Assembly: GCA_023248155.1 (NCBI GenBank)
Contig: JAHFFE010000002.1
Location: 256,864-320,863, forward strand
DNA length: 64,000 bases
Reading direction: 5' to 3'
From: Candidatus Omnitrophota bacterium
GTDB taxonomy: Bacteria; Omnitrophota; Gorgyraeia; 1-14-0-20-64-10
In this document: in pieces, positions 53,286-58,067 of the stretch
Layout of the letters: every line of letters starts with the position of its first letter
Numbering within the stretch: the first letter of the stretch is position 1
Notes under the pieces: model-generated
What the model saw: only the letters and a program-made list of their open reading frames with translations
What the model was told of the DNA's origin: nothing
Database searches by the model: none
Made by a program: the position numbers and the translations under genes

Positions 53286-53348
53286 ATAGCGGTACCGGGT
53301 ACCGCGGGGACAGGTTAAAATAGATCCGGCACTTTTGGAAACGGTACC
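53286..53348. repeat. Intergenic repeat pair: Y-type repeat (ATAgCGGTACCGGGTACCGCGGGGACA) plus inverted X-type repeat
   Basis: 53286-53312 matches the Y repeats at 54121-54147 and 54156-54182. The reverse complement of 53326-53348 is GGTACCgTTTCCAAAAGTGCCGG, which matches the X repeats. Confidence 0.7.
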
Positions 53349-53395: not shown

Positions 53396-54073
53396 GTGAA
53401 GTTTTTGAGAGGTTTCTTGTTAATAGTCCTTCTAGTGGCTTCGCAGGGGTGTGCTTTGGGAGTACTGGCTAATGGGCCAAAGGGTTTGAACGCGATCAAG
53501 CATATGACGGAGATAGTCTCTGACCCTCCAGGAGCTCGAATTGAGATTAATAATCGATATATTGGCAATACGCCACTTACAGTAGAAATTCCTCGCGGAT
53601 ACACTTGGATGAAAGATGATTATTTCAGTCCAAAGCGCATAACAGGTTTCGAAGCAGTGAAGATCACGGCTTATCCGGAGCCTCCGACGGAAGGAGTTTA
53701 CTATGTTCAAACAAAGATTCTCGATTCAAATGAACCGACTCCTTACAATCTCTCCTTTACCATGTGGCTAGAACCTGCTTTTGTTCGTCAAGAAAGAGAG
53801 CATAGAGTACAAGAGGAAGATCGTCAGAGAAAAACCTATGAGGCTTTAAATAGCTGGATAGGCCACACAAAGACAGAACTTCTAGAGCAATGGGGTCCTC
53901 CTACCCAAGTTATTACGAACAAGGAGCAAGATGTCCTTGCATATGATAATTCGGTTCAAATGACTGTGCCTGTGGGATCGGCTGGCCAGCGGTTAATTGT
54001 GAAATCAGGGAAGTATGTAATGTTTTGGATAGATGCCAAGGAAAAAATTTATAAAGTCACATGGAAGGATTAA
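53396..54073 (+). CDS. PEGA-domain lipoprotein
   Basis: GTG start with RBS aagg. Lipobox LLVASQGC. …SDPPGARIEINNRYIGNTPLTVEIPRG… matches the PEGA domain pattern. AT-rich. Confidence 0.65.
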   Translation: MKFLRGFLLIVLLVASQGCALGVLANGPKGLNAIKHMTEIVSDPPGARIEINNRYIGNTPLTVEIPRGYTWMKDDYFSPKRITGFEAVKITAYPEPPTEGVYYVQTKILDSNEPTPYNLSFTMWLEPAFVRQEREHRVQEEDRQRKTYEALNSWIGHTKTELLEQWGPPTQVITNKEQDVLAYDNSVQMTVPVGSAGQRLIVKSGKYVMFWIDAKEKIYKVTWKD

Positions 54074-54081
54074 TCATGAAG

Positions 54082-54218
54082 AGTACCATTTCCAAAAGTG
54101 CCGGGTCTGAGCTTGTGTGGATAACGGTACCGGATACCGTGGGGACAGCGTGAGCATAACGGTACCGGGTACCGCGGGGACACCCGTAGGGTACCATTTC
54201 CAAAAGTGCCGGGTCTGA
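54082..54218 (+). repeat. Nested direct-repeat block X-Y-Y-X filling the intergenic region
   Basis: X1 spans 54082-54110 and X2 spans 54190-54218 (aGTACCATTTCCAAAAGTGCCGGGTCTGA, 28 of 29 identical). Y2 spans 54121-54147 and Y3 spans 54156-54182 (ATAACGGTACCGGrTACCGyGGGGACA). Spacers are 7-10 nt. Confidence 0.8.
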
Positions 54219-54239
54219 TTGATTAGCAGGGGTGGTGTT

Positions 54240-54566
54240 ATGATGCTTAAGACCAAAATTTTTAGCGCGGGTTTTTTGGGCGGGTTAATTCTGGCCCTTT
54301 TTCTGAATCTTCTGCCTTATTGGAAAACAAAAGGGGCTTTGGCGTGGGATGGTGCTGAGTATGCCGGATTTCCATTCCATTTCTATGAGCGATGGGCAGG
54401 TGAGATGCTGCCAGGGGCAACGACCAATTTAACAGCCCATTTTCTTATGGTGAATTTATTGGGTGACATAGGTGTTGGAGTCGCATTCGCGATAATTTTA
54501 GGTGTTTTGTGTGTCATGGCGCGTAATCGTGCCGGGTTCAATAAAGCATTGGGCGGGGACAGGTAG
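54240..54566 (+). CDS. Hypothetical small membrane protein (3 TM)
   Basis: The ATG at 54240 gives MMLKTKIFSAGFLGGLILALFLNLL…. The track ORF starts at TTG 54219, inside repeat X2. Confidence 0.5.
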   Translation: MMLKTKIFSAGFLGGLILALFLNLLPYWKTKGALAWDGAEYAGFPFHFYERWAGEMLPGATTNLTAHFLMVNLLGDIGVGVAFAIILGVLCVMARNRAGFNKALGGDR

Positions 54567-54584
54567 TAAAGTCCCCGTTTTTTT
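54554..54584 (+). terminator. Intrinsic terminator
   Basis: cggggac-aggtagtaaa-gtccccg followed by ttttttt. The stop codon lies in the loop. Confidence 0.75.
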
Positions 54585-54625
54585 CTGGCCACGATATTGC
54601 TGAATCAGCATAAATATTATTTGGG

Positions 54626-55075
54626 GTGATGCTCGACTCCGATCTGGCAGAGTTGTATGGTGTTCCCACGAAAGTTCTAAACCAAGCGGTAAAGAGAAAC
54701 GAGGAGCGATTTCCCGAAGGTTTTATGTTCCAATTGAATCAAGCAGAGTATAAATCTCTAAGGTCACAATTTGTGACCTTAGAGAAAGGGCGTGGAAAAT
54801 ATCCAAAATACCTCCCCCTGGTATTTACCGAACAGGGAGTCGCGATGCTCTCCAGTGTATTGCGCAGCAAGCGAGCAATTCAGGTGAACATTGCCATCAT
54901 GAAAACCTTCGTGAAGCTCCGGGAATTGTTATCAACCCACAGGGATCTTGCTGAAAAGCTGGCCACGCTGGAAAGCAAGTACGACTCGCAATTTAAGGTG
55001 GTTTTTGAAGCAATCCGCCAGTTAATGCTTCCTCCCGAAACGCCCCGCCGCAAAATAGGATTCCATTCGGATTAA
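54626..55075 (+). CDS. ORF6N/KilA-N-type DNA-binding domain protein (phage antirepressor-like)
   Basis: [37 protein letters not shown]…[31 protein letters not shown]… matches the ORF6N domain consensus. Shorter than typical at the N-terminus; a stop lies 15 nt upstream in frame. Confidence 0.8.
54756..54784 (+). other. 29-bp perfect palindrome inside the ORF6N coding sequence (ctctaaGGTCACAAtTTGTGACCttagag)
   Basis: 14-bp perfectly complementary arms around a single central T. The 17-bp core GGTCACAATTTGTGACC is identical to the terminator hairpin at 55080-55112. Encodes [10 protein letters not shown]. Confidence 0.8.
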
Positions 55076-55079
55076 ATTG

Positions 55080-55114
55080 AAACTTGAGGTCACAATTTGT
55101 GACCTCAAGTTTTT
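55080..55114 (+). terminator. Intrinsic terminator of the ORF6N gene (second copy of the GGTCACAATTTGTGACC palindrome)
   Basis: gaaacttgaGGTCACAAtTTGTGACCtcaagttt, a 14-16-bp stem followed by ttttt, 5 nt after the stop codon. Confidence 0.75.
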
Positions 55115-55119
55115 AGCAA

Positions 55120-55162
55120 GGTACCATTTGCGGTGATGCCGGGTTAAAATAAACCCAATCAG
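55120..55162 (+). repeat. Upstream motif C (GGTACCATTTgCGGtGaTGCCGGGTTAaAATAaaCCCAatCAg) abutting the next start codon
   Basis: Shares GGTACCATTTcC…GTGCCGGGT with the X repeats and shares …TGCCGGGTTA-AATA--CCCA-CA with motif D at 55986-56029. Ends 1 nt before the ATG at 55163. Confidence 0.7.
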
Positions 55163-55978
55163 ATGACCCGATTCGTTCACCGATCTCTCGCCGCTGGGCT
55201 GTTGGTGCTGAGCCTTTTCACGGGTTCGGCAAGCGCGCGAGATTTTCTGTTTACAGAAGCAGAATCGGATTGCTTTGCCCAGATGATTTTCATGAATGAA
55301 TGTTCGGGCAGAGAAGAAAAGTTGCTTTACTGGTCGCCCGATGAGGCGTTTCCATCGCTTGGGATCGGGCATTTTATCTGGTACCCCGAAAATGCCTCGG
55401 GCTCTTACCTGGAAACATTCCCGGCATTTCTTGGTTTTGCTAAAGAGATCCATCTGATGATCCCGCCCTGGATTGTCGCACTGCCAAACAAACACTGCCC
55501 CTGGCAGTCGCGCGAGGAGTTTCTGCGAGATCTTCCCAGCGACCGCGTACGCGAGTTGCGGGCTTTCCTGAGCAACACGAAAAGCGAGCAGGCGCAGTTT
55601 ATCGGCCGCCGTTTTATGCGGGTTTTTCCTCGGATTCTTGACGATCTCAACGAGTCGGATCGTGAAGCTACTCAACAGAAATACGATCTTTTGATGCGGC
55701 GTCGCGAGGCGACTTTTGCCATGATCGACTATGTCAATTTTAAAGGGGAAGGACTGCGCGCGGATGCCCGTTATGACGGGATGGGGTGGGGTCTTGCCCA
55801 TGTTCTTATTGAGATGAATATTCCGGACGATCCCGAGAAAGCCCTCGATGAATTTATCCTGGCGGCGGAACGGGTGCTTGAAAGGCGAGTGAGCCGCTCT
55901 CCGAGGCCGGAAATCGAAGCGAAATGGCTGCCCGGCTGGAAAAATCGCGTTAGAAGCTACTCGAGAATCAAGTGTTGA
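55163..55978 (+). CDS. Hypothetical secreted protein
   Basis: Signal peptide MTRFVHRSLAAGLLVLSLFTGSASA. No recognisable domain. High GC (~65%), unlike the preceding AT-rich genes. Confidence 0.6.
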   Translation: MTRFVHRSLAAGLLVLSLFTGSASARDFLFTEAESDCFAQMIFMNECSGREEKLLYWSPDEAFPSLGIGHFIWYPENASGSYLETFPAFLGFAKEIHLMIPPWIVALPNKHCPWQSREEFLRDLPSDRVRELRAFLSNTKSEQAQFIGRRFMRVFPRILDDLNESDREATQQKYDLLMRRREATFAMIDYVNFKGEGLRADARYDGMGWGLAHVLIEMNIPDDPEKALDEFILAAERVLERRVSRSPRPEIEAKWLPGWKNRVRSYSRIKC

Positions 55979-55985
55979 TCAGCAG

Positions 55986-56029
55986 GGTACCATTTCCGGC
56001 GGTGCCGGGTTAGAATAGGCCCAGCAAGG
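55986..56029 (+). repeat. Upstream motif D (GGTACCATTTCCGGCGGTGCCGGGTTAGAATAGGCCCAGCAAGG)
   Basis: Paralogous to motif C. Ends 3 nt before the GTG at 56033 and 12 nt before the ATG at 56042. Confidence 0.7.
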
Positions 56030-56854: not shown

Positions 56855-58015
56855 ATGGGTGAATATATTGGAGTCGGCCGCAAGGCGCGCCGCTGTTACG
56901 GGTTTGATGAAATCGCCCTGGTTCCGGGCAACGTAACGATCAATCCGAACGAGGTTGATGTTTCCTGGAAATTGGGCAAGCAGCAGTACCGCGTGCCGAT
57001 TATTGCCAGCGCGATGGATGGCGTGGTCGATGTGAAGGTGGCCATCGCGTTCGGCAAGCATGGCGGTTTGGGTGTGTTGAACCTGGAAGGGGTGCAGACC
57101 CGCTACGAAGAGCCGGAAGAATTGTTGTCGAAGGTGCGCGCCGCTACTCCCGAAGAAGCAACCGAACTTTTGCAGAAAATTTACCGCGAACCGGTGAAAG
57201 AGAAACTGGTTTCCAAGCGGATTGAAGAAATTAAAGCGGCCGGCGTTTCAGCCGCGGTCTCAGCGATTCCGCAGCGGGCCGCGCGGTTCGGGCCGCTCGC
57301 GCAGGAAGCCGGCGTTGATGTATTCGTCGTGCAGTCGACGGTCTCCACGGTAAAACATATTTCCACAGAATATGAATCACTCGATATCAAGAAATTGTGC
57401 AAGACGATGAAGGCGCCGGTCATCGCCGGCAACTGTGTGACTTATCAGGTGGCGCTGGAATTAATGCAGTGCGGCGTCTCCGGCGTGCTGGTGGGCATCG
57501 GGCCGGGTGCGGCCTGCACCACGCGCGGCGTGCTGGGCATTGGCGTTCCGCAGGTTTCGGCCACGGTTGACTGCGCGGCTGCCCGCGACGCGTACTACAA
57601 GAAAACCAAACGGTATGTGGCGATCATTACCGACGGCGGCATGCGCACCGGCGGCGATGTCTGCAAGGCGTTTGCCTGCGGTTCCGACGCGGTCATGATC
57701 GGGTCGCCGTTCGCGCGCGCGAAAGAAGCGCCGGGCGGCGGATATCACTGGGGCATGGCGACACCGCACGCGAACCTGCCGCGCGGCACGCGCATTCAGG
57801 TGGGTGTCACCGGTACGCTCGATGAAATTTTATACGGACCGGCCCGCACCGACGACGGCACCCAGAATTTGATGGGCGCTCTGTCGACGGCGATGGGTTC
57901 GGTCGGCGCCAAAACCATCAAGGAATTCCAGAAGACGGAAATCATCATCGCGCCGTCCATTCAGACTGAAGGGAAACTGGCCCAGCGGACGCAGCGCGTC
58001 GGCATGGGGAAGTGA
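56855..58015 (+). CDS. IMP dehydrogenase-related protein (GuaB-like TIM barrel without CBS pair)
   Basis: 386 aa. MGEYIGVGRKARRCYGFDEIALVPGNVTINPNEVDVSWKLG…IIASAMDGVV…GIGPGAACTTRGVLGIGVPQ… is IMPDH-family, comparable to the 'GuaB3' type. Confidence 0.75.
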   Translation: MGEYIGVGRKARRCYGFDEIALVPGNVTINPNEVDVSWKLGKQQYRVPIIASAMDGVVDVKVAIAFGKHGGLGVLNLEGVQTRYEEPEELLSKVRAATPEEATELLQKIYREPVKEKLVSKRIEEIKAAGVSAAVSAIPQRAARFGPLAQEAGVDVFVVQSTVSTVKHISTEYESLDIKKLCKTMKAPVIAGNCVTYQVALELMQCGVSGVLVGIGPGAACTTRGVLGIGVPQVSATVDCAAARDAYYKKTKRYVAIITDGGMRTGGDVCKAFACGSDAVMIGSPFARAKEAPGGGYHWGMATPHANLPRGTRIQVGVTGTLDEILYGPARTDDGTQNLMGALSTAMGSVGAKTIKEFQKTEIIIAPSIQTEGKLAQRTQRVGMGK

Positions 58016-58067
58016 CATTCGGTTGCAACCGAATGTCATCCCCGAATTGCTTTTGTCGGGGATCTTA
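58013..58067 (+). repeat. 26-bp perfect palindrome plus hairpin repeat R copy 2
   Basis: 58013-58038 is TGACATTCGGTT-GC-AACCGAATGTCA, starting at the stop codon. 58035-58067 is gtcATCCCCGAattgcttttgTCGGGGATctta, which matches 52016-52047. Confidence 0.7.

Follow-up and report, generated by a model that had tools for sequence, protein, structure and literature searches.

A parS site reportedly lies inside spo0J/parB, the gene of the protein that binds it. The operators lac O2 in lacZ and gal OI in galE are likewise internal to genes, where they act together with promoter operators; transcriptional roadblocks are a related precedent. Restriction-modification controller (C) proteins are small helix-turn-helix (HTH) dimers that autoregulate through C-box palindromes beside their own gene, and palindromic elements occur in coding genes of Rickettsia. 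Coding palindromes have also been described in mitochondrial genes of Nematomorpha (PMC6649704). Here we analyse a pair of palindromes at an ORF6N-domain gene in a 64,000-nucleotide stretch of contig JAHFFE010000002.1 from a Candidatus Omnitrophota bacterium; we refer to the whole stretch as the window. From comparisons of sequence across the ORF6N family, we consider it probable, if far from certain, that the palindrome serves the ORF6N protein as its cognate, dyad-symmetric DNA site, contained in the very codons that specify the protein's DNA-binding domain.

The ORF6N palindrome resembles parS in being a palindromic site inside the gene of a DNA-binding protein, in that site and protein travel together, and in having extra copies nearby. 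In contrast to ParB, which functions in partition together with ParA, the ORF6N protein is encoded by a stand-alone gene without a partner, and its site, unlike parS, is placed in the codons for the DNA-binding domain itself. The sequence of parS is conserved; to our knowledge parS neither co-varies with ParB nor forces amino-acid changes. lac O2 and gal OI share with the ORF6N palindrome the features of a dyad-symmetric operator in a coding region, sometimes with a promoter-proximal partner 200-400 bp away, but they lie in genes other than that of the repressor, whereas the internal ORF6N copy is universal and promoter-proximal copies are optional. C proteins, small HTH dimers with palindromes by their own gene, match the reading that we propose, but C-boxes lie upstream of the gene rather than in coding sequence and have no sequence relationship to the ORF6N palindrome. 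The Nematomorpha and Rickettsia elements are also in-frame perfect inverted repeats in functional genes, where DNA structure and protein reach a compromise. Those palindromes are scattered over numerous unrelated genes within a single genome, and no reader has been assigned to them, whereas the ORF6N palindrome is specific to a single gene family, found in many phyla, whose recognition helix covaries with it. A self-embedded operator is thus already known as a kind; none of these precedents unites a family-wide site in the DNA-binding domain's own codons with covariation between residues and bases. We found no earlier description of the element in the literature on ORF6N, on the palindrome sequence or on PDC-S05, a candidate defence family discussed below.

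An earlier note on this DNA had described two perfect 29-bp palindromes sharing a 17-bp core. Both are present and perfect (Table 1), but each is longer than the note had it, and the core common to them, AGGTCACAATTTGTGACCT, is 19 nt. One palindrome is in frame within the ORF6N coding sequence (CDS); the other begins 5 nt past the stop codon. The two are the longest perfect hairpin-type repeats of the window (the next arms are 13, 10 and 9 bp), lie 326 bp apart, and are direct and inverted repeats of one another simultaneously. Allowing up to 2 mismatches, the 17-mer core occurs at only these two sites in the window (0.01 expected; 0 of 100 shuffles), in agreement with the view that the repeat did not arise by chance. 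The calculated RNA folding energies are about -22 and -23 kcal/mol (z about -6; -23.3 and z = -5.8 for the second copy), and those of the DNA hairpins are -14 to -16 kcal/mol.

A protein search returned at least 8000 homologs at E<1e-5, with 60-82% identity, from Chloroflexota, Omnitrophota, Verrucomicrobiota, Planctomycetota, Acidobacteriota, Nitrospirota, Proteobacteria, phyla of the candidate phyla radiation (CPR) and others. We fetched 80 genomic loci by protein similarity alone and compared the DNA of their 82 genes at homologous codons (loci and proteins are designated by L and P numbers, respectively). A perfect palindrome with arms of 11-19 bp was present at these codons in 56 of the 82 genes. 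Counting outward from the dyad, at least 9 of 14 pairs were Watson-Crick in 81 genes and at least 11 in 79, and positions 2-13 were each 90-100% Watson-Crick. The consensus is YTTRARRTCRCAA-W-TTGYGAYYTYAAR, with positions 2, 3, 6 and 9 invariant or nearly so, and the codons involved encode LRSQ[F/I]VT. Hence, orthologs share inverted-repeat half-sites of conserved sequence, as an operator would.

Two-sided changes were found at 11 of the 14 pairs, and they alter the protein. The commonly encoded peptide R-S-Q-x-V-T corresponds to arms GGTCACAA / TTGTGACC; compensatory variants are GGTCGCAA / TTGCGACC (V to A), GATCACAA / TTGTGATC (T to I), AATCACAA / TTGTGATT (R to K and T to I), GGTGCCAA / TTGGCACC (S to C and V to G) and GGTTCCAA / TTGGAACC (S to F and V to G). 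Distant homologs from Legionella, Bacteroides, Sulfuricurvum, Butyrivibrio and Treponema (35-52% identity, some of 299 amino acids) also retain the palindrome, in Treponema as GGTCGAAA/TTTCGACC (Q to K and V to S). One Legionella gene (L087) retains AGGTGGTCGCAAACTGCGACCACCT but reads it in another frame, as EVVANCDHL. We therefore found the opposite of homologs that keep the amino acids and lose the palindrome: the palindrome is kept where the amino acids change. The earlier note had taken the compensatory differences between the two window copies as a sign of selection on a hairpin or a dimeric site, and the family-wide pattern of two-sided change bears this out.

For a formal count of pairs, we used an ungapped alignment of 79 sequences and 500 shuffles. 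Of the cells counted, 92% were paired, as against 74% after shuffling; 211 cells were changed on both sides, as against 71; and the covariation score was 0.50, as against 0.18. None of the 500 shuffles reached the observed values, and controls in which the alignment was slid gave 24-45% pairing. One-mismatch intermediates were rare. When mapped on a neighbour-joining tree built from the remaining part of the protein, the pair states are scattered almost randomly (30 changes are required at bp 7, compared with 29.9 after shuffling), which indicates that two-sided changes occurred repeatedly; they arose many times, on a tree that is poorly resolved. Many homologs carry insertions or in-frame tandem duplications of the motif at the spot that the palindrome encodes, and evidently the protein tolerates at this loop what the DNA dictates. 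The duplications include palindrome and peptide (for example, LRSQIVTTPSGRAHLRSQIVTSSS) and sometimes mix classes within one gene, as in P0004, where an R-type helix is accompanied by a LRYQFGT copy adjoining a LRSQFVT copy. We saw them at loci L009, L011/L015, L016, L048, L051, L056, L068, L075, L082, L121 and L158 and in proteins P0004, P0005, P0034 and P0110.

We reasoned from codon choice and from mismatches about the level at which this constraint acts. When codon choice in the motif was compared with each gene's own usage elsewhere, synonymous sites proved to be pinned across homologs. Arg was encoded by AGR in 62 of 63 motif codons (22% elsewhere; p=3e-38), Gln by CAA in 73 of 75 (43%; p=1e-22), Ser by TCA in 53 of 63 (13%; p=5e-32), Val by GTG in 53 of 53 (29%; p=2e-27), Thr by ACC in 53 of 57 (35%; p=2e-18), Phe by TTT in 36 of 36 (53%; p=3.5e-10) and Ile by ATT in 30 of 30 (37%; p=2.5e-13). 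These codons were near-fixed even in genes of 58-65% G+C. A direct count at positions 2-13 gave 12 G:T pairs and 14 A:C mismatches, and in the 79-sequence alignment G:U accounted for about 1% of inner cells. Since G:T is not favoured over A:C, the constraint appears to act on DNA, and the pattern argues for strict DNA complementarity, unlike that of RNA stems. An Rfam scan of positions 54000-56000 at E<=5 found no relevant family, only one unrelated weak match. The palindrome thus has neither the G:U-tolerant covariation nor the membership of a known RNA family that would mark a structured cis-regulatory RNA; a hairpin in the mRNA, one of the roles suggested in the earlier note, finds no support here.

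To identify protein residues linked to the palindrome, we screened residues outside the motif for association with the palindrome variant. The top alignment column was x in LNxAVKRN, which is position 6 of the predicted recognition helix (Table 1). Gln at this position goes with A:T at bp 4 (core TCACAA; 52 genes), Glu with G:C (core TCGCAA; 9 genes) and Arg or Lys with C:G (core T(T/G)CCAA; 14 genes), with three exceptions. The mutual information was 1.03 bits and the permutation maximum 0.50. The same residue also splits bp 5, Lys going with T:A and Arg with G:C. The bp 4 association was repeated in the 120 best database proteins, where the encoded motif served as a proxy for the bases (Q with S..V, 95; E with S..A, 10; R or K with (Y,F,C)..G, 7). 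A second residue, at helix position 2, four residues before position 6, tracks bp 7: Lys accompanies G:C in 41 of 41 genes, and in 21 of 24 genes with Arg the left arm has A. We compared 25 independent closest pairs: bp 7 differs in 9 of them, and each of these 9 shows a difference at helix position 2 in the same direction, with no discordant pair. Joint parsimony required 13 changes, compared with 22.4 expected if residue and base pair were independent (minimum 18 in 300 shuffles).

The bp 7 association extends to a synonymous site. With Lys at helix position 2, the Arg codon of the motif is AGG in 39 genes and AGA in none; with Arg at that position, it is AGG in 2 and AGA in 13 (Fisher p=9.5e-11). 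The association persists when the encoded peptide is identical (R...T; p=2.6e-6). We rejected compositional confounding, since GC bias predicts the opposite pairing, and we rejected covariation between protein and peptide on the strength of the synonymous site, the identical-peptide subset and the frame-shifted L087. These results indicate that the coupling is between amino acid and nucleotide rather than between amino acids. At least 6 of 8 distant homologs obey the same code, including L087 in its other frame; L086 does so on one arm only. No protein residue tracks palindrome positions 8-13. Positions 2 and 6 of the second HTH helix are classical base-contacting positions, and Gln-A, Glu-C and Arg/Lys-G are the usual preferences in direct readout, with which the observed pairings agree. 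The spacing of four residues against three base pairs would fit a helix lying in the major groove. Helix residues and base pairs therefore covary as the specificity of an operator and its reader should, including at a synonymous site, and the earlier note's suggestion of an autoregulatory operator gains support. At two loci, L063 and L183, the helix has the signature of the Glu subfamily (LN-Q-QV) with Gln at position 6, the internal palindrome still has G:C at bp 4, and the upstream free copy has A:T, the Gln type. The pattern (n=2) is suggestive and could be a specificity switch caught midway.

We scanned 244 loci (1.48 Mb) for further palindromes of the family, defined by a CA-N3-TG centre and at least 11 of 12 pairs. 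The scan found 215 at the internal site, 35 at 60-450 nt upstream of it, 9 at 60-450 nt downstream and 20 more than 450 nt away, and a further 29 in loci that have no ORF6N gene. Upstream copies peak sharply 250-300 nt before the internal site, that is, about 15-90 nt before the start codon, and are often arranged in arrays of two or three; in homologs they lie 213-328 bp from the internal copy, with 0-60 nt between their end and the ribosome-binding site. Relaxed upstream sites were present in 17 of 77 genes of the unbiased 80-locus set, at 1.3/kb compared with 0.03/kb in control flanks, and overall, upstream copies are present at 17-22% of homolog loci. Within the upstream zone, 37 of 47 distinct near-perfect palindromes are strictly of the ORF6N family, and these non-coding copies share the sequence profile of the coding ones. 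We considered whether they are remnants of a disrupted older ORF6N gene and rejected this, as no ORF6N-like coding sequence precedes them. A dispersed repeat of the repetitive extragenic palindrome (REP), bacterial interspersed mosaic element (BIME) or miniature inverted-repeat transposable element (MITE) type was likewise rejected, given two copies in 64 kb, the low density in control flanks, the concentration of the 19-mer at ORF6N genes in metagenome contigs (described next) and no transposase enrichment.

In metagenome contigs, we listed at least 126 occurrences of the exact 19-mer in 120 loci: 99 internal to ORF6N genes, 12 adjacent and 15 free. Thus, 88% of those listed lie in or beside ORF6N genes. 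Viral contigs (L089-L131) hold 43 occurrences, of which 13 are internal, 3 adjacent and 27 free. Near the free ones (for example, at L090, L092, L094, L095, L099, L104 and L109), an ORF6N gene is absent within several kb, and A-runs and T-runs border many of them, in the manner of bidirectional terminators in AT-rich DNA. Of two control palindromes matched in composition, one had 1 match in the viral contigs and the other 7. The free viral 19-mers could be chance occurrences among terminators or sites relevant to ORF6N proteins.

The second window copy combines the GGTCACAA core with outer arms of the 'NLRSQFVTSS' type known from inside other ORF6N genes; these arms equal those of the internal palindrome of L034 except for one base pair, and the copy looks like a free-standing derivative of a coding copy. 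Both window copies have a GG...CA core that fits K16 and Q20 of the window protein, from which the second copy is, judged by its sequence, a cognate-type site. It is followed by TT, which with the last three stem bases reads TTTTT; three of these T residues pair with AAA in the 16-bp stem. The copy is a stable, G+C-containing stem-loop just 3' of the stop codon, and from its position and shape we infer that it probably terminates transcription. The earlier note's description of it as the gene's terminator is thus plausible, with reservations: a terminator scan did not call it on the + strand, because the T-run lies partly within the stem, and the T-run is absent at the downstream copies of L121, L209 and L245. 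The core is not a general terminator motif in the window. An internal copy combined with one just downstream, as in the window, is rare and was otherwise seen at those three loci. At L209 (600-1100, - strand), five family palindromes with different cores (AAGTCACAG, AAATCACAA, GTGATCACAA, AGATCGCGA and GAGGTCACAA) lie in about 330 nt around a truncated ORF6N fragment, and at L245 the downstream palindrome accompanies a fragmented gene.

The window protein matches PF10543 at 105.1 bits (cut-off 27.8; E=2.3e-30) over profile positions 12-86 of 86, so that the 11 N-terminal positions are absent. Compared with homologs of 165-185 amino acids, the gene lacks about 22 N-terminal codons and hence the full-length stand-alone architecture of N-terminal strands, HTH, loop and C-terminal helices; the first possible start is preceded, at a distance of 5 codons, by an in-frame TAA. 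Both palindromes are still perfect despite this degenerate 5' end, which also contains a separate short palindrome. The database protein P0001 is 100% identical to the window protein. The window protein also matches PHROG anti-repressor families and PADLOC PDC-S05 (E=1.2e-50, and 8.8e-57 for P0009; three profiles, full length). In an AlphaFold model of P0009, helices 26-33 and 37-46 correspond to window residues 4-11 and 15-24, and the residues encoded by the palindrome fall in coil between a helix and a strand, with a predicted local distance difference test score (pLDDT) below 50 from residue 72. A PDB sequence search found no homolog. In the window and at its closest relatives, L142 and L143, the ORF6N unit stands directly after the intrinsic terminator of an unrelated upstream gene; the stems of these terminators differ, and the position could reflect an insertion preference or ordinary gene packing.

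Table 1. Window coordinates of the ORF6N gene, its palindromes and other features described in the text
Feature	Position	Strand	Description
ORF6N-domain gene	54626..55075	+	149 codons from GTG 54626 (148 from ATG 54629); Pfam PF10543
Predicted helix-turn-helix	54635..54700	+	Residues D4-N25; recognition helix T15-R24
K16 (helix position 2)	54671-54673	+	Covaries with bp 7; K38 in P0009
Q20 (helix position 6)	54683-54685	+	Covaries with bp 4/5; Q42 in P0009
C-terminal long helices	54869..55027	+	Window residues about 82-134; P0009 model helices 104-126, 128-140 and 143-156
Palindrome 1 (internal copy)	54755-54785	n/a	TCTCTAAGGTCACAA-T-TTGTGACCTTAGAGA; perfect 15-bp arms, centre T 54770; encodes 10 residues
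Palindrome 2 (free-standing copy)	55080-55112	n/a	AAACTTGAGGTCACAA-T-TTGTGACCTCAAGTTT; perfect 16-bp arms, centre T 55096
Common 19-nt core	54761-54779 and 55087-55105		In palindromes 1 and 2, respectively
Degenerate 5' region	54593..54625	+	Aligns to N-terminal coding/promoter region of close homologs (translation, L142/L143 upstream regions, DNA alignment)
In-frame TAA	54611-54613		Upstream of the first possible start
Separate short palindrome	about 54599-54609		GCTGA-A-TCAGC, 6-bp arms; in the degenerate 5' region
Intrinsic terminator of upstream gene	54555-54584		Directly before the ORF6N unit
GGTACCATTTSCRR repeat	53335-53348	-	
GGTACCATTTSCRR repeat	54082-54095	+	
GGTACCATTTSCRR repeat	54190-54203	+	
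GGTACCATTTSCRR repeat	55120-55133	+	Directly 3' of palindrome 2
GGTACCATTTSCRR repeat	55986-55999	+	
Tandem pair GTG..ATAACGGTACCGGRTACCGYGGGGACA	54115-54182		88% identical, 35-nt spacing; within intergenic 54074-54218
Palindrome TGACATTCGGTTGCAACCGAATGTCA	58013-58038		13-bp arms; overlaps stop codon of IMPDH-like gene (56855-58015)

If the palindrome is the protein's cognate site, an ORF6N dimer would place one HTH on each half-site, with helix position 6 (Q20) reading bp 4/5 from the dyad centre and position 2 (K16) reading bp 7. Dimerisation would involve the C-terminal helices, presumed from the model to form a coiled coil. We infer dimer binding and its regulatory outcome as follows. A dimer bound about 200 nt inside the gene would probably act as a transcriptional roadblock and so impose negative autoregulation, while extra copies upstream or downstream may allow cooperative binding or looping. 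With the site inside the gene, protein and site would be inherited together when the stand-alone gene moves between genomes. The outer arms (bp 8-16) would be kept complementary by hairpin-templated correction (template switching) or by a hairpin or cruciform requirement. Neighbour-gene enrichment at the 80 loci revealed no conserved gene next to ORF6N that could act as an alternative reader; the surroundings consist of housekeeping genes and a few restriction-modification methylases. About 10% of ORF6N loci are in restriction-modification contexts; in Treponema, the methylase and specificity subunits of a type I restriction system flank the ORF6N gene, which is accompanied by a winged-helix regulator.

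Several points weigh against this proposal. Complementarity to 13-19 bp exceeds what a dimer site needs, and reading by the protein does not explain it. An operator would be expected to overlap or adjoin the promoter that it regulates, and the window copies lie in the CDS and after the stop codon. Most loci, including L142 and L143, lack a copy in the promoter region, so that autoregulation would have to act from inside the gene. Where upstream free copies do occur, they are not matched in class to the protein: beside R-type proteins, 8 of 9 carry G:C at bp 7, and beside Glu and Arg/Lys proteins, only 4 of 12 match at bp 4. Possible explanations are tolerance of G by Arg, cross-regulation among paralogs, or the survival of some copies as relics. 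At bp 4, the classes may amount to a few subfamilies, with the correlation resting on few independent events, a weakness that bp 7 does not share. The AlphaFold model is of low confidence (pLDDT 62.6), and Foldseek against the PDB gave only weak matches of winged-helix type (SKI/Dachshund, MarR and RacA; E>=0.1), which are consistent with a DNA-binding fold; for both reasons, the HTH assignment rests on the secondary-structure pattern. Judging from its 5' truncation, the window gene itself may be decaying or non-functional.

An alternative to a duplex protein site is a functional nucleic-acid structure. One version is an mRNA hairpin that affects stability, RNase III processing or translation in the vicinity of the Shine-Dalgarno sequence; another is a DNA hairpin or cruciform whose shape is recognised. 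In its favour, the two copies form very stable hairpins, complementarity is kept at outer positions that no residue tracks, upstream copies stop just short of the ribosome-binding site, and copy 2 is a hairpin plus T-run. Nevertheless, the scarcity of G:U, which is no commoner than A:C, the absence of an Rfam match and the conservation of sequence, and not of pairing alone, in non-coding copies all argue against this, as does the way in which base identity varies together with residues in a predicted alpha-helix, a pattern implying that B-form DNA is read in the major groove. We regard a structural function as unlikely, although it deserves some weight. A simpler idea is that copy 1 reflects a coincidence of coding constraints and copy 2 is an ordinary intrinsic terminator that happens to share its core. 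The LRSQFVT motif is itself conserved, copy 2 is in terminator position, and the free 19-mers of AT-rich phage contigs look like terminators. This explanation has practically no chance of being correct: amino acids change in compensatory fashion, synonymous sites are pinned well past codon usage, the pair count far exceeds its shuffles, one homolog keeps the palindrome in another frame, and neither the expected number of 17-mers in the window nor the concentration of metagenome 19-mers at ORF6N genes is compatible with coincidence. We therefore rejected it.

The palindrome could also be a functionless, self-perpetuating quasi-palindrome, perfected by template switching during replication in a surface loop that the protein tolerates. 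Template switching perfects and conserves inverted repeats in bacteria (PMC5941160, PMC8794818), and such correction accounts for the perfect arms, the rarity of intermediates, the changes on both sides that seem simultaneous, and the differing distances to which the arms extend outward. The scatter of pair states across the protein tree, the low-confidence and insertion-tolerant loop, and the perfection of both copies in a gene with a damaged 5' end also fit. Quasi-palindrome correction is a mutational process, however, and not a function; it leaves unexplained how bp 4/5 and bp 7 track helix residues even at a synonymous site, why extra copies cluster just before start codons, and why about 95% of a family spread over many phyla retains the element. 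As a complete explanation it seems to us highly improbable. The earlier note also suggested recombination sites; on this reading the palindromes would be recombination or mobility sites, that is, recombinase targets or hairpin-mediated hotspots at which parts of ORF6N are moved, inverted or deleted, and the supporting observations are anecdotal. They comprise the tandem motif duplications, the palindrome array with a truncated gene at L209 and the fragmented gene at L245, the tyrosine integrases that adjoin the ORF6N gene at 3 of 8 plasmid loci (among L082, L083, L087 and L088), the wide transfer of a stand-alone gene that shows 60-80% identity across phyla, and the dual orientation of the two window copies as direct and inverted repeats. 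Set against these, recombinases are not enriched beside the 80 chromosomal loci, the palindrome is mid-gene and not at the ends of a unit, paralogs within one genome are divergent and not recent copies, no inverted or excised variants were seen, and the helix covariation is left unexplained. Unit boundaries could not be defined from empty sites (homologs of the downstream 271-amino-acid gene), as synteny is not conserved in relatives. We consider a primary role in recombination quite doubtful.

A different extension of the cognate-site proposal concerns phage defence. According to a preprint (bioRxiv 10.1101/2024.09.26.614923), a PDC-S05 representative protected E. coli against T7, T5 and T4, with plating of T7 and T5 about 1000-fold lower, and is described as carrying a RhuM domain; the passages on PDC-S05 do not mention a palindrome. 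That RhuM-type representative may not be an ORF6N protein, and the link to the window protein is a lead only. The excess of free 19-mers in phage contigs without ORF6N, together with the anti-phage report, is consistent with ORF6N/PDC-S05 being a one-gene module whose protein would, by the same code, also act on palindromes of invading DNA that match, the embedded site serving as a reference or titrating 'self' copy. We put this forward as speculative and rather unlikely. The family is rare on plasmids (25 of 72,556) and near-absent from phage records (5 of 50,697).

The region around the ORF6N gene contains other repeats. An unrelated repeat, GGTACCATTTSCRR, has five copies in the window (0.14 expected), all of them inside a 2.7-kb span; in two of these the repeat is longer, about 31 nt (AGGGTACCATTTCCAAAAGTGCCGGGTCTGA). 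Of the four copies on the + strand, three precede a start codon (54219, 55163 and 56033) by 29-47 nt, and the repeat could be a shared promoter or regulator-binding motif of the gene cluster. Between two copies of this GGTACC repeat lies a tandem pair, GTG..ATAACGGTACCGGRTACCGYGGGGACA. The third-longest palindrome of the window, TGACATTCGGTTGCAACCGAATGTCA, shows no sequence relationship to the ORF6N element and lacks a T-run.

If the palindrome is indeed the cognate site of the ORF6N protein, ORF6N genes would be compact protein-plus-site modules in which the operator is written in the codons of the DNA-binding domain. A nucleic-acid constraint would then override protein sequence, as the compensatory amino-acid pairs and the homolog in another frame indicate, and the conservation of 'LRSQFVTS' would reflect constraint on DNA and not on the protein. 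The family would offer a natural table of residues and bases (Q/A:T, E/G:C and R,K/C:G; K/G:C and R/A) that is open to specificity swaps, and selection on the binding site could be separated, position by position, from symmetrisation of the flanks by template switching. This would be a first point of entry to mechanism for a domain on which almost nothing has been published and for the candidate single-gene phage-defence family PDC-S05.

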